Shown here in pieces: positions 3,346-64,000 of a stretch of 64,000 nucleotides of DNA. Location: contig OZ024741.1 of assembly GCA_964016885.1 (NCBI GenBank), positions 108,500,001 to 108,564,000 of the forward strand, read 5' to 3'. Origin of the DNA: Eledone cirrhosa. Its lineage: Eukaryota. Position numbers and translations under genes: made by a program. Numbering within the stretch: the stretch's first letter is position 1; each line of letters starts with the position of its first letter. The notes below the pieces were generated by a model. The model had not been told where the DNA came from and made no database searches. It saw only the letters and a program-made list of their open reading frames with translations.

Positions 3346-3403
<58 letters not shown>

Positions 3404-3485
3404 ACTACTACTACTACTACTACTACTACTGCTGCTGCTGCTACTACTACTACTACTACTACTACTGCTACTACTACTACTGCAT

Positions 3486-3538
<53 letters not shown>

Positions 3539-3555
3539 ACTGCTGCTACTACTAT

Positions 3556-3586
<31 letters not shown>

Positions 3587-4040
3587 GCTGCTACTACTAC
3601 TGCTACTACTACTACTACTACTACTACTGCTGCTACTACTACTACTACTACTGCTGCTACTACTACTACTACTGCTGCTGCTGCTACTACTACTACTGCT
3701 ACTACTACTGCTGCTACTACTACTACTGCTACTACTACTACTACTGCTACTACTACTACTACTACTACTACTGCTACTACTACTACTACTACTGCTACTA
3801 CTACTGCTGCTGCTGCTGCTACTACTACTACTGCTACTACTACTGCTGCTACTACTACTACTGCTACTACTACTGCTACTACTGCTACTACTACTACTAC
3901 TACTGCTACTACTACTACTACTGCTACTACTACTACTGCTACTACTACTACTGCTGCTACTGCTACTACTACTACTGCTACTACTACTACTGCTGCTACT
4001 ACTACTACTACTACTACTACTACTGCTACTACTACTACTG

Positions 4041-4075
<35 letters not shown>

Positions 4076-4182
4076 GCTGCTGCAGCTGCTACTGCTGCTA
4101 CTACTACTACTACTACTACTACTGCTGCTGCTACTACTACTGCTACTACTACTACTACTGCTGCTACTACTACTACTGCTAT

Positions 4183-4216
<34 letters not shown>

Positions 4217-4259
4217 GCTGCTACTGCTGCTACTACTGCTGCTGCTGCTTCTACTACTG

Positions 4260-4294
<35 letters not shown>

Positions 4295-4373
4295 GCTGCT
4301 ACTACTGCTGCTACTACTACTACTGCTACTACTACTGCTACTGCTACTACTACTACTACTGCTGCTGCTGCTA

Positions 4374-4408
<35 letters not shown>

Positions 4409-4793
4409 ACTACTACTACTACTACTATTACTACTATACTACTACTGCTGCTGCTACTACTACTACTACTACTACTACTATACTACTACTACTATTACTA
4501 CTACTACTACTACTGCTACTGCTACCGCTACTACTACTGCCGTTACTACTACTACTACTACTACTGCTACTACTACTACTACTACTACTACTGTTACTGC
4601 TACTGCTACTAATATAATACTACTACTACTTCTACTACTACTACTAGTACTACCACCACCACCACCGCTACTACTACTACTACTACTATTACTACTACTA
4701 CTACTGCTACTACTGCTGCTGCTGCTGTTGCTGCTGGTGTTGATGCTCCCACTACTACTGCAACTACTTCTGCTGCTTCTGCTGCTTCTTCTG
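3346..4793. repeat. ~1.45-kb compound (TAC/TGC)n trinucleotide microsatellite
   Basis: Directly visible; source of the spurious poly-Y/C/L ORFs. Confidence 0.97.
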
Positions 4794-4848
4794 CTCTGTG
4801 TGTGTCCAGCGCTATCTTTGCCAAGGCTCTGTATGTGTGTGCATCTGC

Positions 4849-9653: not shown

Positions 9654-9777
9654 TAGTTACGGCCCTTTACGTTTTGAGCTCAAATAGCGACCAGGGAGTT
9701 GATAAATAAAGTACCAGTAGAGTACTGTGGTCGGTTTAATCATCTTTGTTCTTGTGCCTATGTTAGAAAGTATTATT
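9654..9777 (+). mobile_element. Degenerate SINE whose tail runs into the (TAC)n(TAA)n tract holding the Tx1 pair
   Basis: GTTACGGCCCTTTA...GATAAATAAAGTACCAGTA...CTTGTGCCTATGTTAGAAAG. Confidence 0.6.
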
Positions 9778-9782
9778 TATAT

Positions 9783-9814
<32 letters not shown>

Positions 9815-10081
9815 ATAATAATAATAATGATTTCATTTATTGGCCACAAGGGCCGACATATAGGGGACAACACAATAGACAGGGACAGTGGGGGTTTACA
9901 TAGAGATCGAGTAAGTATAAATAACAAAAAAACAAAATAACAATAAAAATACAACAATGAAAGTTCCCCAATAAGAGGGATCACCACCCAGGGTTGACTC
10001 AAGCACCCCACCAGTCCTGAGCCACCCGACGCTCCTAGGGCACCCGGGAAGGGCACCCCTCTCCTTCTCGAATTCACCAGC

Positions 10082-13000
10082 CTACAGGCGCATGATCAGA
10101 GTAGGCCCACTCACGCGGGCCATTCTCGCCACATTCACCCACCTTTCAGTAAATGTACTGGGGGGCAGCACTTCTCTCTCCACCCTCACCTTCCTTTCCA
10201 AGTGAAACTTGAAGAAGTTGATGAGGGATTGGCCGAAGAGAAAAGTGTCTGTCTTCAGTCCTTTCAACCTGGTCCACCATGCAACCTCTTTCGCTACTGC
10301 CACCAGGCAGAGGAAAATTGCCTGCCCTTCCTGACCAAAAGAAGGCGGCGGGTCAATCTTCACTATGGACTCGGACGATAGCCGGATCCGTTCTACACGC
10401 GACAATAGCTGTTCGACATAACCCCACAAGTCAGCAATGCACGGACACTGGACGAGTGCGTGCAGAACGGTTTCGTCGCTCTGCGCGCATCTCGGGCAGG
10501 TTCGTCTGACAGCACTTCCGTGCCTGTAGAGTTTATCCCGAACCGGCAGCGCCCCCCGGTAGCACTGCCAAGCGAGGGATTTATGGAAGTTATCCATCGT
10601 CCCCGGCTCGAAAGTCCTCCGGAACATACTGGTCAGTTCTACTTCGTTGACGCCCAGAGCCTCTCCTAGTACGTCATCGCACTTGCCCTCCACTAATCCT
10701 CTATAGAAATCTTGAGTGGAAGTTCCACTGACCGCATTGCCCACCTTGCAGAGTGCAGTGAGCGCCTGGCAACATTCCAGATGCCAGTCGCCCAGTCTCG
10801 GTCTCTTCTTGACCCAGGACTGCAGCTCAGTCAAAGAGATGAGCTGCGGAAAGGCCCGTCTAACAAACGGCGACCACACCTGTTCACCGTTTAGGCAAAA
10901 TATCTGGAGATGTCGCAGCCTCAGCGCATGTCTGCGCATCATTAGCCACGGCATGCCCAGCCCTCCACGAAGAGGGTGCTGGCAGCAGATGGACCGCCTC
11001 ACCAACGGGACCCGTCCCCTCCACAAAAATTTGAAAAGGAGCCGTTCCAAATTGGCGAGGCGTGGACGGGGGCAAGGCACGACGGTCAGGCGGTAGTAGA
11101 TGACGGACGCGATGTACGCGTTCGCCAACTCCGCCCGCCCTTTCAGTGATAGCTTTCTCTCAGCCCATTTCTGGGTGAGGTTGGCTATCCTGCTCGTCAC
11201 CTCGTCCCAATTCTTATCCACCTGGAGGTCTGGTCCGAACCAAACCCCGAGCAACTTTACCGGTCCGTCTGTCCAGCGCCCAACGACGCTGTTGGACGGC
11301 ATGGACTTGCCTCTCCAGGTGCCGAGCTGCAAGCCCACCGACTTTTCCGGGTTAAGTTTTGCTCCCGTCAACCTTTCATATTCCTCCAAATGGGTGCGGA
11401 TCACCTCGATTTCCGAGGTGTCCGACACCATCACGGTGATGTCGTCCGCATAAGCGGACGCAGCCTTTCTGCGTCCCGGTTCGAGCGGGATGCCCTGCAA
11501 CAACTCCAGCTTCCGCAGTAGAGGCTCAAGAGTCAATACGTACAGAAGTGAGGAGAGAGGGCACCCTTGACGGACCGATCGAGAGATCTGAAACGGTTCC
11601 GAGAGGTGGCCATTAACTTTGACCACCGAGCGGATGCCGCTGTACATTGCAGCGATCCAGCTTCTGAAGACGGGGCCGAAGCCAGCCGCCTCGAGGACAG
11701 CCTCCAAGTACCGATGGTCGACCCTATCGAATGCTTTCGATTGATTTAAATTGATCAGAGCCCCACCGAAGCCAGGTTTGCACCCAACCCTCTCTATGAT
11801 GTATCGCATGAGGTGGAGGTTGTCGTGTATGGACCTGGTCGGGATTGCGCAAGTTTGCGCCTCCCCAACCAAATCTTTGACGACAAGCGCCAACCTTTTC
11901 GCTAACACCTTGGCCAAAATCTTAAACTCTGTGTTGAGCAGGGTTATGGGCCTGAAATTATCTAGTGTGTCCCTCTTGTTCTCGTCTTTCCTTATCAGCG
12001 TCACTACGCCACGGCTCACAGAACTGGGAATGCTCCCGTTCTGCTGCCAGTTGCAGTAGAGCGCTTCGAGGAGATCGGAGAACAAGTCTGGCATATTTAC
12101 GTAAAGCTCGTAGGGCAGACCATCCAAACCGGGTGACTTGCGACTCGAGCAGCCGACAAGGGCGTCCTGAATTTCGGCTGATGTTATCGGCTCTTCGCAG
12201 CGCTCAGCGTCGGCCGTCGAGAGGCGTGGCAAGCCGTCGAGGTAGGGACTGAAGTCCGCCGCCGTCTCCGACTCACCCATCCTCCCGAACAATCGAGCAA
12301 AGTGCTGGCGAAAGGCCTCACACATCTGCTTGGAATCGCTCAGTTCGTGTCCATCTCGATCCGTCAAAGACCGAATTGTGGTTTTATTTCCACGCTGCGT
12401 CTCTGCAAAGCGAGCCCATCGGGCAGCTTTGCTTCCCTCGTTCCTCAGAGCACGCGCCTTAGCTCTGACAATGCAACCTTCGTGTTTCGCATTGAAGAAA
12501 TGGTCTAGTGCCATTCTCGCCGCTAGCACGTCTGTTGCAATGCCACTACAAATAGCCTCGTCTAACTTAGCTATCAGCCCCTCCTCCTTTCTATTTTTCT
12601 CTATTGCTACTTCTTTGCTAAATCCTATCGAGGTTGCTCTAATCTCTCTTTTGAGTGCCCCCCACCACCTGTTGTTGACAACCCCCCCTGTCAACTTTTG
12701 CTTAACTAAGTTGTTGACCCGGTCCCTGTAAGCTTTACGTGCCGGAAACGACATGTTTAGCTTCCAGTAGCTAGGTCCTAACCTACGTGTCTTATCTAGG
12801 TCGACCATACAGATCACAAGCTTGTGATCTGAATAGGCAACCGTTTTAAAATGTGGACATCCTACACTATTTCTATCTCTTTTCCTAATGAAAATCCTAT
12901 CTATGTACGATCTAGATGACCCTATGCGATTGGTCCAGGTCCATACTGGCGCATTAGGGAAATCTAGTCGGTACCTGTCAGACAGTTGAAACTGGCTGAT

Positions 13001-13501
13001 CAGGTACTTGAGGCTTTTGCACCCCCCGCTCCTATCAGATACTCCCACACAATCCCAGCGTGCTTCTAAGATGCCATTCCAATCCCCTATTAACAGTAAA
13101 GGGCGAGACGTAAGCAGAAAGTTTTCCAGGCGCCTAAAGAAGTCCGGCCGACCGGCCCCAGTAGGGGCGTAGACGGCCACCAGTCTAAAGGCACCACCTT
13201 CGCTATTGCTCACGTCCAGGACCACCAACTTTCCGTCAGGATCCCGGAAGATTGACCTTACCTCGAGATCCAGACATTTCCTAAACAGCACAGCCACTCC
13301 ACCTCCCATTCCCGGCCGACTAACAGATGCAAAGATCTGATAATCGTCGAAAATCGGCGCCAGTGCGCGTGTGTCGGAAATTCTGGTCTCGCTGATGGCA
13401 ATTACATCCATTCCTAGTGACCTGAGGTCGTTGAGCAAGTGACCTTGCTTCCAGGGCGACCCCAGGCCACGAACATTTAAACTTCCTACTCTTATGGCCA
13501 T
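10082..13501 (-). CDS. Tx1 ORF2: AP endonuclease + reverse transcriptase + C-terminal CCHC zinc finger (motif-A Asp mutated to Asn)
   Basis: EN motifs SLNVRGL, ISET, VYAP, GDWN, IDRI, SDH; RT motifs SPGLDG, FRPITLLN, LNQSKAFD, RQGCPLS, YADD; CPRC..ETVLHALVQC. Confidence 0.95.
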   Translation of the reverse strand: MAIRVGSLNVRGLGSPWKQGHLLNDLRSLGMDVIAISETRISDTRALAPIFDDYQIFASVSRPGMGGGVAVLFRKCLDLEVRSIFRDPDGKLVVLDVSNSEGGAFRLVAVYAPTGAGRPDFFRRLENFLLTSRPLLLIGDWNGILEARWDCVGVSDRSGGCKSLKYLISQFQLSDRYRLDFPNAPVWTWTNRIGSSRSYIDRIFIRKRDRNSVGCPHFKTVAYSDHKLVICMVDLDKTRRLGPSYWKLNMSFPARKAYRDRVNNLVKQKLTGGVVNNRWWGALKREIRATSIGFSKEVAIEKNRKEEGLIAKLDEAICSGIATDVLAARMALDHFFNAKHEGCIVRAKARALRNEGSKAARWARFAETQRGNKTTIRSLTDRDGHELSDSKQMCEAFRQHFARLFGRMGESETAADFSPYLDGLPRLSTADAERCEEPITSAEIQDALVGCSSRKSPGLDGLPYELYVNMPDLFSDLLEALYCNWQQNGSIPSSVSRGVVTLIRKDENKRDTLDNFRPITLLNTEFKILAKVLAKRLALVVKDLVGEAQTCAIPTRSIHDNLHLMRYIIERVGCKPGFGGALINLNQSKAFDRVDHRYLEAVLEAAGFGPVFRSWIAAMYSGIRSVVKVNGHLSEPFQISRSVRQGCPLSSLLYVLTLEPLLRKLELLQGIPLEPGRRKAASAYADDITVMVSDTSEIEVIRTHLEEYERLTGAKLNPEKSVGLQLGTWRGKSMPSNSVVGRWTDGPVKLLGVWFGPDLQVDKNWDEVTSRIANLTQKWAERKLSLKGRAELANAYIASVIYYRLTVVPCPRPRLANLERLLFKFLWRGRVPLVRRSICCQHPLRGGLGMPWLMMRRHALRLRHLQIFCLNGEQVWSPFVRRAFPQLISLTELQSWVKKRPRLGDWHLECCQALTALCKVGNAVSGTSTQDFYRGLVEGKCDDVLGEALGVNEVELTSMFRRTFEPGTMDNFHKSLAWQCYRGALPVRDKLYRHGSAVRRTCPRCAQSDETVLHALVQCPCIADLWGYVEQLLSRVERIRLSSESIVKIDPPPSFGQEGQAIFLCLVAVAKEVAWWTRLKGLKTDTFLFGQSLINFFKFHLERKVRVEREVLPPSTFTERWVNVARMARVSGPTLIMRL

Positions 13502-13530
13502 GCTGGCAGGATGAATGGGAGAGGAAAGGT

Positions 13531-15441
13531 TTACTTACCTTCCGGGGTCTTGTGAAGGTCGGGTGGTTCGACCTCCATGGTTTGTGGGGTTTCTTTTGGG
13601 AACCCCTTTAATAGTCTTGACGTGGGTTTTACGTTCGGGGTTCCCACATCCCGAGGAAAGCTCTTTCGAATTTCTTTGTATGAAGCGAGCGACATTCGCA
13701 TCAGAAGCAAATTATCTGGTACGCGAAATGTGCTCGCTTCAAATGTTTCCCCGTCTTTTTCGATGTTTGTGCTTCGTGCTACATGGGCCATCAATTCCTT
13801 GTTGGCCCTTCTGGCAAGCACGAAGTTTTTAATGTTTTGTTGCTCGGGTTTTATTTGTTCGTGTGATTGTGGTGGTGATAGCTTTGTTAGTGTTGTTTCT
13901 ATTGTGTCTGCGTTTGTTGTGGGTGGGGTGTCTGTAGTTTCTGATGTTTGTGTGTCTATTTGTTCTTGTGTCTGTTTAGCTTGTTTGCGTTTGGGGGATT
14001 TTGGTGGTTGTGTTGGTGATGCTGTGGGGAAAATGTTTGTGTGGGTGATGTGTGTATTTTTTTTTGTGGGGGTGTCTGTGCTTTGTGGATTTCTTTTTTT
14101 TTTGTGTTTTGTTTTTTGTATTTTGGGGGACTTTGGTTTTCCCTCATCTTCACTGCTGGAGGATGAGGGGTCTGTGGCTGTGAGCGTGTTTGTGTCTGAG
14201 TGAGTGTTTATGTTCTTGTTCGTGTGTGTATTTTGGGGGGGAGGGGGAATGGGAGAGCTTTCCTCGTTTCCCCCCTGGGTGTGCAATTTTGGTGGTTCCA
14301 TTGTTGACGGTGTTGCTGGTGGTCCTTGTCCCGGCGTCGCCAGCAGTGGAATCTTTCGACCCCTTGCGCTTTTCGGCAGTTGAGGGCAGAAGGCTCGCAA
14401 GTGTGTCGTTTCCCCACAAAGGAAACAATGCGGCCTTTTGCCCTCAGTCATTATATGCAACACCCTCCCGTTTTGGAGGCGGATGTGGTCCGGGATTGCT
14501 TTTACGTTTTCGGGTCTGATTTGGAGCAGTATCTCCAGATCAACCCCGGACCAGTCGTCCCTGGCAGTTCTCGTTGCCTCTACCGGGACTGTATCCGTTC
14601 CTTCCACGATTACGCAACCCAGGAGCCACCACATATCAAGTCCTGGTGGAATCCTGGGAATGCGCACACGTGCTATTCGTTTTCCCATGTGGGAGGGGTA
14701 CATTATAACCTTGCTGGTTTTGCAAGGGGTCATTGAATGCTTCACAGCGAGGGCTTCAGACTTGAACAGCACCGAAACGGTGCCGTATTGCCTGCCCCTC
14801 TCTATGAAGTCTGTGTCCTCTCTGATGTATTTCAGTGCGGCTTCTATGTCAGCTTGGGCGATTATCGCTGCCCTCTTTGTCTCTACTGAGATGCATCTGA
14901 AATGCACCGTTCTTTTTTCCACTGCCTCAATGGCTTCTGCCGGGACAGTTAAGTTTGCCCAGGTCTGCTCTTGATTTATGATTTTCCAGGCCTGGGCCAA
15001 CTTTTCCTCTCTGTTGGTTAAGTCGATGCTGTAGCATGGTCTCCTTTTAGCCGCTGCCACAGCAGCGAAGGTGTTCTTGTTGGTGTTGTCACTGTTGTTG
15101 TTCTTGTTGGTGTTGCTGCTGCTATTGCTGTTGTTGTTCTCCCCTGTGTCGTGGTTACCCTCTGTGTTGTTGGCCTTGTTGGTGCTGTTGCTGTCGCTAC
15201 TATTACTCTCTGTGCTGTTCGTTTTGTTGGTGCTCTCGCTATTACCACCTTCTGCGCTGTTCGGCTTGTTGGTGTTGGTGTTGTCGCTGTTACCACCTTC
15301 CGCGCCGCTCGGCCCGTTGGTGCTGGCACTGTCGCTGCTCACATTCGTGCTGGTGGCGCTCCTCACCTCACCTCTCCTCTCAACGCTCAAGTCGCCGTTG
15401 CACGACAGCAGACCCGCCTCTAGGGGGCGTGGCTCCGCCAT
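13531..15441 (-). CDS. Tx1 ORF1 gag-like protein (636 aa) with CCHC zinc knuckle
   Basis: Likely start AAACATGG (MAEPRP); N/S/T-rich N-terminus, TFAAVAAA motif, CFLCGETTHLRAFC knuckle; stops 29 nt before the ORF2 ATG. Confidence 0.9.
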   Translation of the reverse strand: MAEPRPLEAGLLSCNGDLSVERRGEVRSATSTNVSSDSASTNGPSGAEGGNSDNTNTNKPNSAEGGNSESTNKTNSTESNSSDSNSTNKANNTEGNHDTGENNNSNSSSNTNKNNNSDNTNKNTFAAVAAAKRRPCYSIDLTNREEKLAQAWKIINQEQTWANLTVPAEAIEAVEKRTVHFRCISVETKRAAIIAQADIEAALKYIREDTDFIERGRQYGTVSVLFKSEALAVKHSMTPCKTSKVIMYPSHMGKRIARVRIPRIPPGLDMWWLLGCVIVEGTDTVPVEATRTARDDWSGVDLEILLQIRPENVKAIPDHIRLQNGRVLHIMTEGKRPHCFLCGETTHLRAFCPQLPKSARGRKIPLLATPGQGPPATPSTMEPPKLHTQGGNEESSPIPPPPQNTHTNKNINTHSDTNTLTATDPSSSSSEDEGKPKSPKIQKTKHKKKRNPQSTDTPTKKNTHITHTNIFPTASPTQPPKSPKRKQAKQTQEQIDTQTSETTDTPPTTNADTIETTLTKLSPPQSHEQIKPEQQNIKNFVLARRANKELMAHVARSTNIEKDGETFEASTFRVPDNLLLMRMSLASYKEIRKSFPRDVGTPNVKPTSRLLKGFPKETPQTMEVEPPDLHKTPEGK

Positions 15442-15979
15442 GTTTTTTTGAGAAAAAAAGTTTTTTTTTTTCAAAATAAAGTTCAAATATTTGGGCCAAA
15501 AGGCCCAAATATTATGAGTTATTCCTTCACAGGATACAAATTAATGTCTTATAATGCTTCAGCGGTACAAAAAATAAACAATTCTCTACAATTAATCCTC
15601 AAAAATTGCTTACTCACGGAGCTTCAAAAAACGTACATCCACTTTCGTCAATAATAATAATAATAATGATTTCATTTATTGGCCACAAGGGCCGACATAT
15701 AGGGGACAACACAATAGACAGGGACAGTGGGGGTTTACATAGAGATCGAGTAAGTATAAATAACAAAAAAACAAAAACAAAATAACAATAAAAATACACC
15801 AATGAAAGTTCCCCAATAAGAGGGATCACCACCCAGGGTTGACTCAAGCACCCCACCAGTCCTGAGCCACCCGACGCTCCTAGGGCACCCGGGAAGGGCA
15901 CCCCTCTCCTTCTCGAATTCACCAGCCTACAGGCGCATGATCAGAGTAGGCCCACTCACGCGGGCCATTCTCGCCACAT

Positions 15980-18900
15980 TCACCCACCTTTCAGTAAATG
16001 TACTGGGGGCAGCACTTCTCTCTCCACCCTCACCTTCCTTTCCAAGTGAAACTTGAAGAAGTTGATGAGGGATTGGCCGAAGAGAAAAGTGTCTGTCTTC
16101 AGTCCTTTCAACCTGGTCCACCATGCAACCTCTTTCGCTACTGCCACCAGGCAGAGGAAAATTGCCTGCCCTTCCTGACCAAAAGAAGGCGGCGGGTCAA
16201 TCTTCACTATGGACTCGGACGATAGCCGGATCCGTTCTACACGCGACAATAGCTGTTCGACATAACCCCACAAGTCAGCAATGCACGGACACTGGACGAG
16301 TGCGTGCAGAACGGTTTCGTCGCTCTGCGCGCATCTCGGGCAGGTTCGTCTGACAGCACTTCCGTGCCTGTAGAGTTTATCCCGAACCGGCAGCGCCCCC
16401 CGGTAGCACTGCCAAGCGAGGGATTTCTGGAAGTTATCCATCGTCCCCGGCTCGAAAGTCCTCCGGAACATACTGGTCAGTTCTACTTCGTTGACGCCCA
16501 GAGCCTCTCCTAGTACGTCATCGCACTTGCCCTCCACTAATCCTCTATAGAAATCTTGAGTGGAAGTTCCACTGACCGCATTGCCCACCTTGCAGAGTGC
16601 AGTGAGCGCCTGGCAACATTCCAGATGCCAGTCGCCCAGTCTCGGTCTCTTCTTGACCCAGGACTGCAGCTCAGTCAAAGAGATGAGCTGCGGAAAGGCC
16701 CGTCTAACAAACGGCGACCACACCTGTTCACCGTTTAGGCAAAATATCTGGAGATGTCGCAGCCTCAGCGCATGTCTGCGCATCATTAGCCACGGCATGC
16801 CCAGCCCTCCACGAAGAGGGTGCTGGCAGCAGATGGACCGCCTCACCAACGGGACCCGTCCCCTCCACAAAAATTTGAAAAGGAGCCGTTCCAAATTGGC
16901 GAGGCGTGGACGGGGGCAAGGCACGACGGTCAGGCGGTAGTAGATGACGGACGCGATGTACGCGTTCGCCACCTCCGCCCGCCCTTTCAGTGATAGCTTT
17001 CTCTCAGCCCATTTCTGGGTGAGGTTGGCTATCCTGCTCGTCACCTCGTCCCAATTCTTATCCACCTGGAGGTCTGGTCCGAACCAAACCCCGAGCAACT
17101 TTACCGGTCCGTCTGTCCAGCGCCCAACGACGCTGTTGGACGGCATGGACTTGCCTCTCCAGGTGCCGAGCTGCAAGCCCACCGACTTTTCCGGGTTAAG
17201 TTTTGCTCCCGTCAACCTTTCATATTCCTCCAAATGGGTGCGGATCACCTCGATTTCCGAGGTGTCCGACACCATCACGGTGATGTCGTCCGCATAAGCG
17301 GACGCAGCCTTTCTACGTCCCGGTTCGAGCGGGATGCCCTGCAACAACTCCAGCTTCCGCAGTAGAGGCTCAAGAGTCAATACGTACAGAAGTGAGGAGA
17401 GAGGGCACCCTTGACGGACCGATCGAGAGATCTGAAACGGTTCCGAGAGGTGGCCATTAACTTTGACCACCGAGCGGATGCCGCTGTACATTGCAGCGAT
17501 CCAGCTTCTGAAGACGGGGCCGAAGCCAGCCGCCTCGAGGACAGCCTCCAAGTACCGATGGTCGACCCTATCGAATGCTTTCGATTGATCTAAATTGATC
17601 AGAGCCCCACCGAAGCCAGGTTTGCACCCAACCCTCTCTATGATGTATCGCATGAGGTGGAGGTTGTCGTGTATGGACCTGGTCGGGATTGCGCAAGTTT
17701 GCGCCTCCCCAACCAAATCTTTGACGACAAGCGCCAACCTTTTCGCTAACACCTTGGCCAAAATCTTAAACTCTGTGTTGAGCAGGGTTATGGGCCTGAA
17801 ATTATCTAGTGTGTCCCTCTTGTTCTCGTCTTTCCTTATCAGCGTCACTACGCCACGGCTCACAGAACTGGGAATGCTCCCGTTCTGCTGCCAGTTGCAG
17901 TAGAGCGCTTCGAGGAGATCGGAGAACAAGTCTGGCATATTTACGTAAAGCTCGTAGGGCAGACCATCCAAACCGGGTGACTTGCGACTCGAGCAGCCGA
18001 CAAGGGCGTCCTGAATTTCGGCTGATGTTATCGGCTCTTCGCAGCGCTCAGCGTCGGCCGTCGAGAGGCGTGGCAAGCCGTCGAGGTAGGGACTGAAGTC
18101 CGCCGCCATCTCCGACTCACCCATCCTCCCGAACAATCGAGCAAAGTGCTGGCGAAAGGCCTCACACATCTGCTTGGAATCGCTCAGTTCGTGTCCATCT
18201 CGATCCGTCAAAGACCGAATTGTGGTTTTATTTCCACGCTGCGTCTCTGCAAAGCGAGCCCATCGGGCAGCTTTGGTTCCCTCGTTCCTCAGAGCACGCG
18301 CCTTAGCTCTGACAATGCAACCTTCGTGTTTCGCATTGAAGAAATGGTCTAGTGCCATTCTCGCCGCTAGCACGTCTGTTGCAATGCCACTACAAATAGC
18401 CTCGTCTAACTTAGCTATCAGCCCCTCCTCTTTTCTATTTTTCTCTATTGCTACTTCTTTGCTAAATCCTATCGAGGTTGCTCTAATCTCTCTTTTGAGT
18501 GCCCCCCACCACCTGTTGTTGACAACCCCCCCTGTCAACTTTTGCTTAACTAAGTTGTTGACCCGGTCCCTGTAAGCTTTACGTGCCGGAAACGATATGT
18601 TTAGCTTCCAGTAGCTAGGTCCTAACCTACGTGTCTTATCTAGGTCGACCATACAGATCACAAGCTTGTGATCTGAATAGGCAACCGTTTTAAAATGTGG
18701 ACATCCTACACTATTTCTATCTCTTTTCCTAATGAAAATCCTATCTATGTACGATCTAGATGACCCTATGCGATTGGTCCAGGTCCATACTGGCGCATTA
18801 GGGAAATCTAGTCGGTACCTGTCAGACAGTTGAAACTGGCTGATCAGGTACTTGAGGCTTTTGCACCCCCCGCTCCTATCAGATACTCCCACACAATCCC

Positions 18901-19345
18901 AGCGTGCTTCTAAGATGCCATTCCAATCCCCTATTAACAGTAAAGGGCGAGACGTAAGCAGAAAGTTTTCCAGGCGCCTAAAGAAGTCCGGCCGACCGGC
19001 CCCAGTAGGGGCGTAGACGGCCACCAGTCTAAAGGCACCACCTTCGCTATTGCTCACGTCCAGGACCACCAACTTTCCGTCAGGATCCCGGAAGATTGAC
19101 CTTACCTCGAGATCCAGACATTTCCTAAACAGCACAGCCACTCCACCTCCCATTCCCGGCCGACTAACAGATGCAAAGATCTGATAATCGTCGAAAATCG
19201 GCGCCAGTGCGCGTGTGTCGGAAATTCTGGTCTCGCTGATGGCAATTACATCCATTCCTAGTGACCTGAGGTCGTTGAGCAAGTGACCTTGCTTCCAGGG
19301 CGACCCCAGGCCACGAACATTTAAACTTCCTACTCTTATGGCCAT
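15980..19345 (-). CDS. Tx1 ORF2 (EN+RT+CCHC) with intact catalytic motifs and a -1 frameshift near the C-terminus
   Basis: LDQSKAFD and YADD intact; G5 at 16005-16009 versus G6 at 10160-10165 replaces the native C-terminal tail, which continues in another frame to 15927. Confidence 0.93.
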   Translation of the reverse strand: MAIRVGSLNVRGLGSPWKQGHLLNDLRSLGMDVIAISETRISDTRALAPIFDDYQIFASVSRPGMGGGVAVLFRKCLDLEVRSIFRDPDGKLVVLDVSNSEGGAFRLVAVYAPTGAGRPDFFRRLENFLLTSRPLLLIGDWNGILEARWDCVGVSDRSGGCKSLKYLISQFQLSDRYRLDFPNAPVWTWTNRIGSSRSYIDRIFIRKRDRNSVGCPHFKTVAYSDHKLVICMVDLDKTRRLGPSYWKLNISFPARKAYRDRVNNLVKQKLTGGVVNNRWWGALKREIRATSIGFSKEVAIEKNRKEEGLIAKLDEAICSGIATDVLAARMALDHFFNAKHEGCIVRAKARALRNEGTKAARWARFAETQRGNKTTIRSLTDRDGHELSDSKQMCEAFRQHFARLFGRMGESEMAADFSPYLDGLPRLSTADAERCEEPITSAEIQDALVGCSSRKSPGLDGLPYELYVNMPDLFSDLLEALYCNWQQNGSIPSSVSRGVVTLIRKDENKRDTLDNFRPITLLNTEFKILAKVLAKRLALVVKDLVGEAQTCAIPTRSIHDNLHLMRYIIERVGCKPGFGGALINLDQSKAFDRVDHRYLEAVLEAAGFGPVFRSWIAAMYSGIRSVVKVNGHLSEPFQISRSVRQGCPLSSLLYVLTLEPLLRKLELLQGIPLEPGRRKAASAYADDITVMVSDTSEIEVIRTHLEEYERLTGAKLNPEKSVGLQLGTWRGKSMPSNSVVGRWTDGPVKLLGVWFGPDLQVDKNWDEVTSRIANLTQKWAERKLSLKGRAEVANAYIASVIYYRLTVVPCPRPRLANLERLLFKFLWRGRVPLVRRSICCQHPLRGGLGMPWLMMRRHALRLRHLQIFCLNGEQVWSPFVRRAFPQLISLTELQSWVKKRPRLGDWHLECCQALTALCKVGNAVSGTSTQDFYRGLVEGKCDDVLGEALGVNEVELTSMFRRTFEPGTMDNFQKSLAWQCYRGALPVRDKLYRHGSAVRRTCPRCAQSDETVLHALVQCPCIADLWGYVEQLLSRVERIRLSSESIVKIDPPPSFGQEGQAIFLCLVAVAKEVAWWTRLKGLKTDTFLFGQSLINFFKFHLERKVRVEREVLPPVHLLKGG

Positions 19346-19374
19346 GCTGGCAGGATGAATGGGAGAGGAAAGGT

Positions 19375-21285
19375 TTACTTACCTTCCGGGGTCTTGTGAA
19401 GGTCGGGTGGTTCGACCTCCATGGTTTGTGGGGTTTCTTTTGGGAACCCCTTTAATAGTCTTGACGTGGGTTTTACGTTCGGGGTTCCCACATCCCGAGG
19501 AAAGCTCTTTCGAATTTCTTTGTATGAAGCGAGCGACATTCGCATCAGAAGCAAATTATCTGGTACGCGAAATGTGCTCGCTTCAAATGTTTCCCCGTCT
19601 TTTTCGATGTTTGTGCTTCGTGCTACATGGGCCATCAATTCCTTGTTGGCCCTTCTGGCAAGCACGAAGTTTTTAATGTTTTGTTGCTCGGGTTTTATTT
19701 GTTCGTGTGATTGTGGTGGTGATAGCTTTGTTAGTGTTGTTTCTATTGTGTCTGCGTTTGTTGTGGGTGGGGTGTCTGTAGTTTCTGATGTTTGTGTGTC
19801 TATTTGTTCTTGTGTCTGTTTAGCTTGTTTGCGTTTGGGGGATTTTGGTGGTTGTGTTGGTGATGCTGTGGGGAAAATGTTTGTGTGGGTGATGTGTGTA
19901 TTTTTTTTTGTGGGGGTGTCTGTGCTTTGTGGATTTCTTTTTTTTTTGTGTTTTGTTTTTTGTATTTTGGGGGACTTTGGTTTTCCCTCATCTTCACTGC
20001 TGGAGGATGAGGGGTCTGTGGCTGTGAGCGTGTTTGTGTCTGAGTGAGTGTTTATGTTCTTGTTCGTGTGTGTATTTTGGGGGGGAGGGGGAATGGGAGA
20101 GCTTTCCTCGTTTCCCCCCTGGGTGTGCAATTTTGGTGGTTCCATTGTTGACGGTGTTGCTGGTGGTCCTTGTCCCGGCGTCGCCAGCAGTGGAATCTTT
20201 CGACCCCTTGCGCTTTTCGGCAGTTGAGGGCAGAAGGCTCGCAAGTGTGTCGTTTCCCCACAAAGGAAACAATGCGGCCTTTTGCCCTCAGTCATTATAT
20301 GCAACACCCTCCCGTTTTGGAGGCGGATGTGGTCCGGGATTGCTTTTACGTTTTCGGGTCTGATTTGGAGCAGTATCTCCAGATCAACCCCGGACCAGTC
20401 GTCCCTGGCAGTTCTCGTTGCCTCTACCGGGACTGTATCCGTTCCTTCCACGATTACGCAACCCAGGAGCCACCACATATCAAGTCCTGGTGGAATCCTG
20501 GGAATGCGCACACGTGCTATTCGTTTTCCCATGTGGGAGGGGTACATTATAACCTTGCTGGTTTTGCAAGGGGTCATTGAATGCTTCACAGCGAGGGCTT
20601 CAGACTTGAACAGCACCGAAACGGTGCCGTATTGCCTGCCCCTCTCTATGAAGTCTGTGTCCTCTCTGATGTATTTCAGTGCGGCTTCTATGTCAGCTTG
20701 GGCGATTATCGCTGCCCTCTTTGTCTCTACTGAGATGCATCTGAAATGCACCGTTCTTTTTTCCACTGCCTCAATGGCTTCTGCCGGGACAGTTAAGTTT
20801 GCCCAGGTCTGCTCTTGATTTATGATTTTCCAGGCCTGGGCCAACTTTTCCTCTCTGTTGGTTAAGTCGATGCTGTAGCATGGTCTCCTTTTAGCCGCTG
20901 CCACAGCAGCGAAGGTGTTCTTGTTGGTGTTGTCACTGTTGTTGTTCTTGTTGGTGTTGCTGCTGCTATTGCTGTTGTTGTTCTCCCCTGTGTCGTGGTT
21001 ACCCTCTGTGTTGTTGGCCTTGTTGGTGCTGTTGCTGTCGCTACTATTACTCTCTGTGCTGTTCGTTTTGTTGGTGCTCTCGCTATTACCACCTTCTGCG
21101 CTGTTCGGCTTGTTGGTGTTGGTGTTGTCGCTGTTACCACCTTCCGCGCCGCTCGGCCCGTTGGTGCTGGCACTGTCGCTGCTCACATTCGTGCTGGTGG
21201 CGCTCCTCACCTCACCTCTCCTCTCAACGCTCAAGTCGCCGTTGCACGACAGCAGACCCGCCTCTAGGGGGCGTGGCTCCGCCAT
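19375..21285 (-). CDS. Tx1 ORF1 gag-like protein, copy 2
   Basis: Translation identical to copy 1 ORF1. Confidence 0.9.
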   Translation of the reverse strand: MAEPRPLEAGLLSCNGDLSVERRGEVRSATSTNVSSDSASTNGPSGAEGGNSDNTNTNKPNSAEGGNSESTNKTNSTESNSSDSNSTNKANNTEGNHDTGENNNSNSSSNTNKNNNSDNTNKNTFAAVAAAKRRPCYSIDLTNREEKLAQAWKIINQEQTWANLTVPAEAIEAVEKRTVHFRCISVETKRAAIIAQADIEAALKYIREDTDFIERGRQYGTVSVLFKSEALAVKHSMTPCKTSKVIMYPSHMGKRIARVRIPRIPPGLDMWWLLGCVIVEGTDTVPVEATRTARDDWSGVDLEILLQIRPENVKAIPDHIRLQNGRVLHIMTEGKRPHCFLCGETTHLRAFCPQLPKSARGRKIPLLATPGQGPPATPSTMEPPKLHTQGGNEESSPIPPPPQNTHTNKNINTHSDTNTLTATDPSSSSSEDEGKPKSPKIQKTKHKKKRNPQSTDTPTKKNTHITHTNIFPTASPTQPPKSPKRKQAKQTQEQIDTQTSETTDTPPTTNADTIETTLTKLSPPQSHEQIKPEQQNIKNFVLARRANKELMAHVARSTNIEKDGETFEASTFRVPDNLLLMRMSLASYKEIRKSFPRDVGTPNVKPTSRLLKGFPKETPQTMEVEPPDLHKTPEGK

Positions 21286-21511
21286 GTTTTTTTGAGAAAA
21301 AAAGTTTTTTTTTTTCAAAATAAAGTTCAAATATTTGGGCCAAAAGGCCCAAATATTATGAGTTATTCCTTCACAGGATACAAATTAATGTCTTATAATG
21401 CTTCAGCGGTACAAAAAATAAACAATTCTCTACAATTAATCCTCAAAAATTGCTTACTCACGGAGCTTCAAAAAACGTACATCCACTTTCGTCAATAATA
21501 ATAATAATAAT

Positions 21512-21589
21512 ACGACGACCACCACCACCACTACTGCTACTACTTCGACTGCTGCTGCTACTACTACTTCTATTTCTACTGTTGCTACA

Positions 21590-21626
<37 letters not shown>

Positions 21627-21629
21627 TTG

Positions 21630-21673
<44 letters not shown>

Positions 21674-21691
21674 GCCACCAGCACCACCAGC

Positions 21692-21763
<72 letters not shown>

Positions 21764-21810
21764 GTTGCTACTACTTCTACTTCTACGACCGTTGCTGTTA
21801 TTATTACTAC
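21512..21810. repeat. (TAC)n-rich microsatellite, right flank of the Tx1 pair
   Basis: Continues the (TAC)n tract interrupted at 9783-9812. Confidence 0.9.
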
Positions 21811-55400: not shown

Positions 55401-56509
55401 TAATTGTTGAGTTGGGTGATGAACGTTTAAGAGCTACTTTCTCGGACTTCTTGACTTCATCACCCTGCTCTCTCATTCTTACTTTCATATCGTGAATCTC
55501 CTTTTCCTTCTTTTGAATGGTTCTCACTTGTTCTGAAACAAAACTAGCCAAGAAAGAAGACATCTGATTTTCGCGTGGTGTTTCAAGGAAATCCTTCTCT
55601 TCAGATGGGACATCCTTTCGTTCGAGAACATCAATGTCCGCGGGATCTCATTTCCAAATCTTACGCTTTTCAATTGCTTTGTAAGACAGCATCGACTTTT
55701 TTCCCGTTCATCAACAATTCCTCTATTGAAGTGCTGATGATTTTTCCGTTTTGTTAGGACTTGTTGCCCCCATACTTGTTGGATATTCTGACTAGTGCCT
55801 TTTACGGTAACTGAAGTTGTGTCCCCGATTTAGAGGTGATGGTAGTAAAAACTCAAGAGCACTTGTTTGGAAGGGAGTCACGTCTGAGGCTTTTTCTCAG
55901 GCAGCCAAATAGTATTTCTGTTTTCCATTAATCGATACATTTTATTTTAATGAGCATTCGGGTTCTTAAATTTCTGCAACACATTCATGCTATGAAAAGC
56001 AAAAGAGAAGAATATTTTTTCGTGACTTAATAACAACGGATGGAACTTCACGAAAACCAACGTGTTTCCTTCTCGTTAACAAAACCAGAACTGAACCAAC
56101 AATGCAATAAACCTTAGAAACGTATTATTAACTCATTACCTTGTCGAATTATAAAAACAAGTCACAGATGGAAAATTATTCCTACATACTTAGTTTAAGT
56201 TTATGGTTCATTTTGTTTTATTTTAGTATCTATAAACGGTAGAAACGTCTTTTGCATGTACCAAGTTAAAACGGACAACGATGCAACCTGGGTACAATCA
56301 ACAAGTGTTGAAGTAAACGTTTTGTATTCAAAAAGCACCAAAATCTGCAACTCTAAATGTATTCGCATCTCTTGGAATTTTCGCGTGTATAGGTTGTATG
56401 TCTAATGGATTCAGTGTGCAATCATCAGTGATTCCCCGCAACAATCTTTCTCTATATATATGAAACACAGTAATATATATATATATTACCGTGTTTCATA
56501 TATAGATAT

Positions 56510-58063
<1,554 letters not shown>

Positions 58064-58616
58064 TATAATATTATCGTTTACATGATGGAACGTGCACAGA
58101 TACTGCTGCATTTAAAACAATTTCAAATGTGTTCATGCATCACACAGTCTGTTTTCATTAGCTGTGTATATGTTAGTGTGCGTATGCTAGCTTAAATGAA
58201 TGTGAGTATGCGTGTGTGTTTATTTATTTAGTGTTTCATTACCAGGAAGATAGTTACAACCTATGTTCTTCACTGTTGCTCTGCCTACTTTATCACAACA
58301 TCTCTGGCACTCTCACCTTAAAATGGCGCTTTCAAATTTTTTTACTAAATAAACTAAACTATCAGATATTGCACACATACGAATGTGCCCTTGCACAGAC
58401 ACACAGACAGACAGACTCACACACATATATATATATACATATACGTATGTTTTCGTATGAAAGCTACGATAAAAGCATGTGATGGTGTAGAGGGATGTAC
58501 TGTTTAAGGCAAGTTATAAAAAAGATACGATAAAACTACAGAGGGGCGAAGACAGATTAATATATGAATACGTGAAAAGATAGAAGGTAAATATAGATAC
58601 TACTATCTACATGTAT

Positions 58617-62224: not shown

Positions 62225-64000
62225 ACTTCTGGGTGAGTGCAAACGCCTTGGCCGTCACCTCGTTCCAGTTCTTCTCCACCTGGAGGTCCGCACCAAACCA
62301 GACCCCGAGCAGCTTTACCGGACCTTCCGTCCAACGTCCGACGACGCCATCGGAAGGCATCGGTTTGCCTCTCCACGATCCGAGTTGCAAACCGATGGAC
62401 TTGTCCCGGTTCAGATTCGCTCCTGTGAACCTTTCGTATTCCTTCAGTAAGGTGCCGACTTCCTCTATTTGCGAGGCACTCGACACCATTACTGTCACGC
62501 CGTCGGTGGAGGCCGACGCCGCTTTCCGCAGTCCCGGTTCCAGAGGATGCCCTGCAATAGATCCAACTTCCGCAGTAGTGGCTCGAGAGTCAGTACGTAG
62601 AGAAGGGAGGAGAGAGGGCATCCCTGTCGAATGGATCGCGTGATATGGAACGGCTCCGAAAAGTTGCCGTTCACCTTGACCCTTGAGCAGCCCCTGAACA
62701 CGGGTCCGAAACCTGCCGCCTCGAGCACAGCATCCAGGTAACGATGGTCAACCCTATCGAAAGCCTTAGACTGATACAAGTTGATCAGGGCCCCACCGAA
62801 GCCGGGTTTACACCCTACCCTCTCTATGATATATCGCATGAGGTGGAGGTTGTCGTGTATGGACCTGGTCGGGATTCCGCATGTCTGCGCTTCTCCCACC
62901 AGGTTTTCGACGACAAGCGCCAGCCTCTTTGCCAACACATTGGCCAAAATCTGTAACTCTGTGTTTAGCAGAGTTATGGGCCGGAAGTTGCCTATGTCAT
63001 CCCCCTTATTCTCGTCCTTCCTGACTAGTGTGATTACGCCCCCGGTCACAGAACTGGGAATTCTCCCGTTCTGTTGCCAGTTGCCGTAGACCGGTTCCAA
63101 GAGACCGGAGAATGAGTCCGGCATTGCTACGTTAAATTCGTAGGGTAGACCGTCGAGACCTGGAGATTTACGTTTGCCGCATTGGCTCAGCGCGTCCCCT
63201 ATCTTAGCGGCCGAAATCGGCTTTTCGCAATACTTTGCCTCGCTGTCCGAGATTCGCGGTAGGCCGTCGAGGTATGGACCAAAATCCATAGCCCCTCCCG
63301 GCGCGCCGTCCTGCCCGAACAGTTGAGCAAAGTGCCGCTGAAAGGCCGCACACATCTCCTTAGGCCTACGTATCACACGTCCGTTTTGGTCCTTCAAAGA
63401 CCGAATCGTGGACTTGTTGCCACTTTTTGCCTCCGTCACTCGGGCCCAGCTAACAGCTTGGGCTCCCTCGTTTCCCAGAGCACGTATTTTGCTTCTGACA
63501 ACGCAGCCCTCGTGCTTTGCGTCGAAGAACTGGTCCAAGGCCGTTCTCGTTGCTAGCACGCTGGCTACGTTGCCACTTCTAATTGCCTCTTCTACTTTAT
63601 CTACCAGTTCCTTCTCGGTTATATTTCTATCTAACGCTAATTCTTTACTAAACACTAATGAGTCTAATCTAACTGCCCTCTTGAGAGAGTACCACCATCT
63701 GTTGTTGACAATGTCCCCTGTCAAGTGCTGTTTAACTAAAGTGCTAATCCGTCTACTGTAGGCTTTGCATGTCGGTAACGACAAGTTCAGCTTCCAGTAG
63801 CCGGGTCCTTGTCTATGGCTTCTATCAAGGTTGACCATGCAGGTCACTAGTTTGTGATCTGAATAGGCAACCATGAACATTTGTGGACAGCTTAACATGT
63901 CCCTATCCTTCTTTCTAACTAGAACCCTATCTAGGTACGATCTAGATGTTCCGCTGAGATTAGTCCACGCCCACAATGGAACAGTCGGAAAATCTAGTCG
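62225..64000 (-). pseudogene. Diverged, disrupted Tx1-like ORF2 from a related subfamily; runs off the window end
   Basis: ORF 62495-63976 aligns to copy 1/2 ORF2; LINLYQSKAFD, an in-frame deletion, a frameshift before the YADD region, and the 3' part lost at 62225. Confidence 0.9.

Follow-up and report, generated by a model that had tools for sequence, protein, structure and literature searches.

Head-to-tail copies of an ATT-targeting L1/Tx1-type LINE in Eledone cirrhosa, bordered by probable target-site duplications

How does a dispersed retrotransposon come to stand directly behind another copy of itself, and what are the short repeats that separate the two? The question is raised by two full-length copies (A and B) of a long interspersed nuclear element (LINE) in a 64-kb stretch of the 3.0-Gb assembly of the octopus Eledone cirrhosa (GCA_964016885.1, contig OZ024741.1, positions 108,500,001 to 108,564,000). 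This whole stretch is called the window, and the coordinates below are window positions unless a chromosome is named. Both copies lie on the minus strand, and the order on the sense strand is (ATT)6-copy B-(ATT)6-copy A-(ATT)5. We consider it probable that they are young copies of an ATT-specific L1/Tx1-type LINE, that the flanking ATT units are duplicated target (target-site duplication, TSD), and that the second copy inserted into the duplication upstream of the first.

The arrangement was described in a first-pass annotation made from the window alone, and it proved exact: the run lengths are as given, the two 5′ ends begin at the identical base, and poly(A) is absent. The three ATT runs are the only (AAT/ATT) runs of at least four units in the window. 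The array lies between (TAC)10 and an imperfect ACT tract, in agreement with the embedding in TAC repeats that had been reported. About 11 differences between the copies had been estimated, and global alignment gave exactly 11, namely nine substitutions, one 6-bp indel and one 1-bp indel. All 11 fall within the 3′ 2,924 bp, and A and B agree at every base of the 5′ 2,897 bp (p about 0.0005 under a uniform spread of differences). The features are listed below; the runs, the hexamer and the ACT flank are given as read from the sequence, and the TSD nature of the 3′ run was judged from imperfect TSDs elsewhere.

About 9783-9814, plus strand: (TAC)10 flank, extending the tail of a repeat that resembles a short interspersed nuclear element (SINE; identity judged by eye)
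9814..9828, minus strand: 3′ TSD, (ATT)5 in sense, (AAT)5 on the plus strand
9829..15649, minus strand: copy A, full length, 5821 bp, downstream, likely the resident (insertion order inferred)
9836..9841, minus strand: AATAAA hexamer of copy A, 7 nt from the 3′ end, candidate poly(A) signal
10082..13501, minus strand: open reading frame 2 (ORF2) of copy A, 1139 amino acids; APE endonuclease, reverse transcriptase (RT), zf-RVT
13531..15441, minus strand: ORF1 of copy A, 636 amino acids; low-complexity ends, two RRM-like domains, CCHC knuckle (type I ORF1)
15442..15649, minus strand: 5′ untranslated region (UTR) of copy A, 208 nt, first base G
15650..15667, minus strand: junction (ATT)6 between the copies, the length of one TSD
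15668..21493, minus strand: copy B, full length, 5826 bp, upstream, likely the later arrival
15980..19345, minus strand: ORF2 of copy B, 1121 amino acids; frameshift near the C-terminus from a 1-bp indel
19375..21285, minus strand: ORF1 of copy B, 636 amino acids, same sequence as in A
21494..21511, minus strand: 5′ TSD, (ATT)6
21530..21786, plus strand: imperfect ACT microsatellite flank

ATT specificity and target-site duplications

The proposal of a young APE-type, Tx1-like family with (ATT)n specificity stood up when the genome was searched. An exact 32-nt head sequence had 316 matches, 310 of them preceded by (ATT)3 or more; of the six exceptions, the five that could be identified proved to be imperfect ATT runs. 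Random 5′ flanks at other copies, the observation that the annotation had named as speaking against its proposal, were thus not found. The first 30 heads, retrieved without ATT in the query, all have an ATT run (30/30), and with a shorter 14-nt head word 191 heads were preceded by seven or more ATT units. The family is strictly ATT-specific. When young copies were picked by the 3′ end, almost every one was full length (10 of 11 taken in genome order, 19 of 19 ranked by 3′ identity), and truncated copies are scarce (1/30). Copies truncated at the 5′ end are too few for a targeting test: one is young (L169, with a 5′ junction without ATT) and the few older ones are mixed. An exact 38-nt tail had 875 matches, which include an older sister subfamily (87% ORF2 identity).

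The ATT runs are duplicated target and not an RNA tail. At C3:98.97-98.99 Mb two copies with 29 differing sites have an imperfect 18-bp run with one ATC unit on either side and again between them. Exact imperfect TSDs were also found at L334 (18 bp) and L329 (15 bp). GTT stands directly after the 3′ end in L157 and in the last copy of a 10-copy array, and the 5′ flank holds GTT too. Since imperfect units are copied to both sides and GTT follows 3′ ends directly, the repeats derive from the target as TSDs. The first-pass annotation had instead taken the (ATT)n as a tail of the element that recreates its own target; in this version the RNA would end in (ATT)n, and its copying into the genome would leave new target behind each copy. 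It is true that nearly all 3′ ends are followed by ATT, and a transcript may be polyadenylated only after reading into the ATT run and may pair with the nicked strand. The imperfect TSDs, however, largely refute this version, the GTT after the two 3′ ends matches the unit in the 5′ flank, the 3′ runs can be as short as 0-3 units, and younger copies tend to lie upstream; we regard it as very unlikely. An ATT tail or leader in the RNA is not needed, although reading of the transcript into the ATT run may aid priming. An (ATT)n leader at the RNA's 5′ end was considered and rejected; L329, L334 and L330 have non-ATT units 3-9 nt from the head.

Several side observations concern the target. A dispersed low-complexity repeat with an internal (ATT)2-10 run (L181-L210) is a recurrent landing site of the family; its 34-nt core has 886 exact copies, 29 empty sites hold a mean of 5.8 ATT units, and filled sites typically have 4-9 units ahead of the element and 2-8 behind it. 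At least two related families use the same target (L261-L290; L162-L178) and occur in mixed head-to-tail chains with this one. One of them has 5,402 exact tails, longer ATT runs and about 78% ORF2 identity. In the sister subfamily ATT precedes the head in the 10 copies in which a head was found, and nearly all heads start with G. The window holds, at 9660-9782 on the plus strand, an abundant SINE-like repeat whose end resembles the LINE tail and is then followed by ATT (also at L232, L234, L237 and L246), and about one third of 30 sampled ATT tracts are tails of that repeat.

Arrays across the genome

The window pair is one of many. Tail-head junctions with spacers of 15-18 nt were found 44 times at 25 loci, three of these junctions with an older sister copy upstream. 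The genome-wide count covers spacers up to 18 nt, and no ATT spacer of 14 nt or less was found among tail-head junctions; five spacers of 7-8 units between young copies were seen among additional loci examined. Gap-free tail-head matches (11/15) were rejected as junctions, the three inspected being an unrelated repeat. Seventeen of the first 100 heads are tandem heads. The genome has at least 65,958 (ATT)5 tracts, so that at most 3.0 tandems would be expected if all tracts were equal targets. Self-adjacent copies therefore exceed what simple ATT targeting explains, and there are 23 arrays of 2-10 young copies. Such targeting also fails to account for the identity of the window pair over the 5′ half.

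Neighbors were compared in an alignment of 116 young copies, which come from 72 loci and make up roughly one third of the family; one truncated, one internally deleted and one partly retrieved copy, gap-adjacent columns and a 25-nt homopolymer region were left out. The 23 arrays contain 44 adjacent pairs. At least 10 differences separate the members of 22 pairs, spread over 13 loci; five pairs differ at 6-9 sites and 17 at five or fewer. The divergent pairs, above all the dimer with the triple TSD and 29 differences, show that insertion at one site was repeated. In these 22 pairs the 5′ copy has fewer locus-private variants 17 times and the 3′ copy three times, with two ties (p=0.003); without the 10-copy array the ratio is 13 vs 2. 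By this measure new copies probably enter the upstream TSD, as in Drosophila R1. The earlier idea that arrays form when the element inserts beside itself was supported in that arrays arise at least partly by repeated insertion, but entry leans toward the upstream TSD and not toward the tail.

The steps can be pictured as follows. The APE endonuclease would nick the TAA strand some 5-6 units short of the point where the ATT run ends, the RNA would then be copied by target-primed reverse transcription (TPRT), and another nick where the run ends would produce the order flank-TSD-new copy-TSD-old copy. With a TSD formed at each insertion, two usable targets would be left each time. Longer arrays may subsequently have been reshaped through unequal exchange.

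A number of observations weigh against this explanation. The 17 pairs with five or fewer differences compare with 2.8% between loci, and independent insertion alone is insufficient to account for them. The polarity is weaker by other measures (first versus last copy, 8 vs 2, p=0.11; nearest-outside distance, 7 vs 4, p=0.55), pairs within one array are not independent, and the threshold for the polarity count was chosen after looking at the data. Marker alleles are shuffled throughout the family, with four-gamete violations in 40-54% of site pairs, which makes single markers weak indicators of lineage. The length of the TSD is not fixed, some single copies permit a TSD of only 6-12 bp, and the flanks of L330 and C9_43 mismatch as TSDs of 15-18 bp. 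In the window pair all ATT runs are perfect, and its TSDs are inferred from the other loci. Among the contigs and restriction site-associated DNA (RAD) reads none spans the pair, and no empty allele was found there for the window locus or L157.

Other arrays have features of their own. A 10-copy, 58-kb array at C1:423.362-423.420 Mb (L121-L127) has (ATT)5 at all nine of its nine junctions, copies whose age rises from the 5′ to the 3′ end, mosaic neighbors, and a 3′ end that meets an inverted fragment of the element's tail. At C10:44.67-44.71 Mb there are at least six copies. Two sharply chimeric copies that lead their arrays (the first copy of L131-L132, and L137-L138) carry 23 of 24 and 14 of 14 locus-private variants in their 5′ 2.3-2.6 kb, and their 3′ part looks young; this combination of old 5′ and young 3′ parts suggests that exchange also occurs the opposite way.

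Origin of the window pair

The distribution of markers suggests how the pair was assembled. The 5′ haplotype common to A and B occurs in 4 of the 116 copies, two of the four having been picked for their likeness to the window. The 3′ markers of B (3063A and 3386T) are also carried by four copies, from three other loci, in which this 5′ haplotype is missing, and those of A are 3218G and 4179C. The simplest reading is that A was the resident, that the 3′ part of B came from another source RNA, and that the 5′ part of B came from A. More weakly, the data suggest the route by which that 5′ half was acquired: the growing complementary DNA (cDNA) may have switched to the adjacent copy A, or gene conversion may have followed later. 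Genome-wide, seven neighbors share 5′ markers and differ in the 3′ part, and none shows the reverse (cuts at 2.0-2.3 kb; 2.4% and 5.6% between loci), although four of the seven rest on one marker and the cut was picked after looking. A matched test of 5′ sharing gave a mean rank of 0.60 (p=0.04), with the window pair as the extreme case. A resident copy could, then, be both landing pad and template, in that a cDNA primed in the upstream ATT duplication switches to the DNA of the neighbor and is completed there; we put this forward as a doubtful but possible extension.

A different origin, which we think unlikely, is duplication at the DNA level, where one insertion would have been doubled through the ATT direct repeats (by misalignment or break-induced replication) and then altered by mutation and ectopic gene conversion. 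This would fit the 17 nearly identical pairs, the 12 of 44 pairs without a marker difference, an identical dimer with 14 locus-private variants, and the perfect match of the window copies over 2,897 bp; furthermore, the mosaic neighbors of the 10-copy array show that DNA exchange occurs. A plain duplicate, however, would not restrict the 11 differences between A and B to the 3′ half. Four of the nine A/B substitutions are alleles of other sublineages, three of them outside CpG, A and B have no exclusive common variant and do not form a clade of their own (support 0.72), and half of the adjacent pairs (22/44) are clearly distinct sequences. More improbable still is a single integration event in which the reverse transcriptase jumped between RNAs or copied a transcript that had run through a tandem source. 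Arrays such as that at C7:62.8 Mb, whose nearly identical copies represent a dispersed sequence and have no private variant in common, and the narrow range of junction lengths agree with such an event, but the junction at C3:98.97 Mb repeats the local imperfect target and not a source sequence, poly(A) is absent from the junctions despite the AATAAA at the 3′ end, and no second locus that closely matches both members of a mixed dimer was seen in an informal look at the nearest-neighbor lists.

We give hardly any credence to an assembly artefact, the remaining way in which such a pair could appear, with two haplotypes or a collapsed repeat joined in tandem. That no long read spans the pair and that two other loci have identical neighbors would be compatible with it. 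Against it, neither flank occurs twice, 43 other junctions share the form of this one, and A and B bear markers of separate sublineages. In the 5′ part specific to the family, contig depth was about 1,900-2,150, compared with 6-11 on the flanks, compatible with some hundreds of copies; the estimate is rough and comes from two runs of one sample, which is possibly the source sample.

Element type, known systems and meaning

Each copy has a 208-nt 5′ UTR, ORF1, ORF2 and a 3′ UTR with AATAAA 7 nt from the end. ORF2 contains the Pfam domains Exo_endo_phos, RVT_1 and zf-RVT, with the APE domain N-terminal at residues 7-226. Its top match in the PDB is human L1 ORF2p (E 1.7e-56, residues 4-853), and R2 proteins matched at E 1e-21, in a structure comparison that contained no CR1, RTE, I or Jockey references. 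Its closest named homologue, from Argonauta hians, shares 69% identity. An AlphaFold model of the ORF1 core (40-sequence alignment) had a predicted local distance difference test (pLDDT) score of 93.5, and its best match to a tandem-RRM protein had an E value of 1e-5. The core ends in the CCHC knuckle, the motif of which is present in the sequence, zf-CCHC was found in 7 of the 40 homologues, and Atlas matches scored 0.90-0.93. Both ORFs and the checked motifs are intact in 55 of the 111 full-length family copies examined. Each window copy carries its own lesion: the first RT motif of A (window 11746) has Asn in place of the Asp found in L1 and copy B, an Asp that we take to be catalytic, and B has the ORF2 frameshift. 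A canonical splice donor, GGTAAGT, overlaps the ORF1 stop codon (13533-13539 and 19377-19383, minus strand), and the ORF2 stop TAG could act as its acceptor. The window also holds another related LINE fragment (62226-64000, minus strand; about 67-70% ORF2 identity), clipped by the window edge, and two imperfect tracts of great length, (TAC)n with about 457 units and (AT)n, at 3346-4795 and 56453-58071.

The element is an APE-RT LINE of L1/Tx1 type, and it is a likely candidate for the Tx1 clade itself; no named Tx1 reference was found among the homologues. Dong, whose target is of the same microsatellite class, belongs to the R4 clade, with a C-terminal restriction-like endonuclease and no APE domain, an architecture that differs from that of the element described here with its N-terminal APE domain. 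A type I ORF1, with RRM and a CCHC knuckle, is consistent with Tx1 (PMC5203782), although the feature is not exclusive to that clade. Target preference has been called in Tx1 families at more than 20% of flanks (PMC4494074), a level that the heads of this family exceed. Dong is described as specific for TAA repeats, with a snail member, and is placed under the APE type in PMC3812793.

Tx1 families that seek microsatellites are known, among them Kibi for (TC)n, Koshi for (TTC)n, and crocodilian families for (TTCC)n or (TTTC)n (PMC4494074, PMC3812793). Ours resembles them as an APE-type, Tx1-like, microsatellite-specific LINE; compared by description and not by sequence, it differs in its (ATT)n target, which is not that of Kibi or Koshi, and in its mollusc host. 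Tandem formation also has precedents. Drosophila R1 elements of the ancestral type stand head to tail, one 14-bp TSD apart, through insertion into the 5′ TSD of the resident (PMC2718515). The copies described here are likewise one TSD apart, as the triple imperfect 18-bp TSD and the 44 junctions of 15-18 nt indicate. R1, however, belongs to its own clade and uses a single type of locus in the 28S rDNA, whereas tens of thousands of dispersed targets are available in E. cirrhosa, and despite this dispersal the sites beside young copies are re-used above chance. McGurk and Barbash (PMC5932611) considered double insertion a general source of transposable element dimers and satellites; the TSD in the dimer junction, bursts through site preference and later expansion by unequal exchange are common to both cases. 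The non-LTR (lacking long terminal repeats) dimers in that work were mostly tail-to-truncated, whereas here nearly all copies are full length and arrays of mixed lineage reach 10 copies. SINEU-3 tandems formed with Tx1-Mar (PMC4494074) are similar in the sequential insertion around a TSD by Tx1 machinery and different in that SINEU-3 is a non-autonomous SINE with a Mariner transposon as target. With respect to templating, L1 cDNA has been described to leave its RNA and pair with DNA near the insertion site, giving templated insertions (10.1101/2024.08.27.596794); those templates are short, non-L1 and found in tumors, whereas the template suggested here is kilobases of adjacent element. An annotation of Octopus vulgaris lists 13 recently active L1-Tx1 families, with no analysis of their targets (PMC13282606). 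Our literature search found no ATT-specific Tx1 element, no octopus Tx1 arrays and no neighbor-templated completion of a LINE insertion; sources beyond its reach (Repbase, Kojima and Fujiwara 2004, the PMC4494074 supplements) could contain an ATT-specific family.

Repeat-seeking and the formation of tandems by re-use of TSDs were thus known already, and what is new is the ATT target of an APE-type element and the possible borrowing from a neighbor. Our contribution is to show that the ATT repeats are TSDs, to count and order the arrays of this family across the genome, and to report the 5′-sharing signal. The family adds (ATT)n to the targets of APE-type site-specific LINEs, and its microsatellite-specific endonuclease with TSDs of 15-18 bp is useful for learning how such enzymes read sequence. 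About 300 mostly full-length copies, in arrays of 2-10 that can be ordered by age, make an unusually clean system, in which a single genome allows two questions to be tested: by what route scattered LINEs give rise to tandem satellites, and whether a neighboring copy serves to complete TPRT intermediates. If true, neighbor templating would explain the excess of self-adjacent copies, the nearly identical neighbors, the sharing of 5′ and not of 3′ parts, the rarity of truncation and the mosaicism throughout the family. In that case recombination would take place in the tandem arrays, a LINE family would thereby have a form of sex, and the arrays would be the seeds of satellites with 5.8-kb units.

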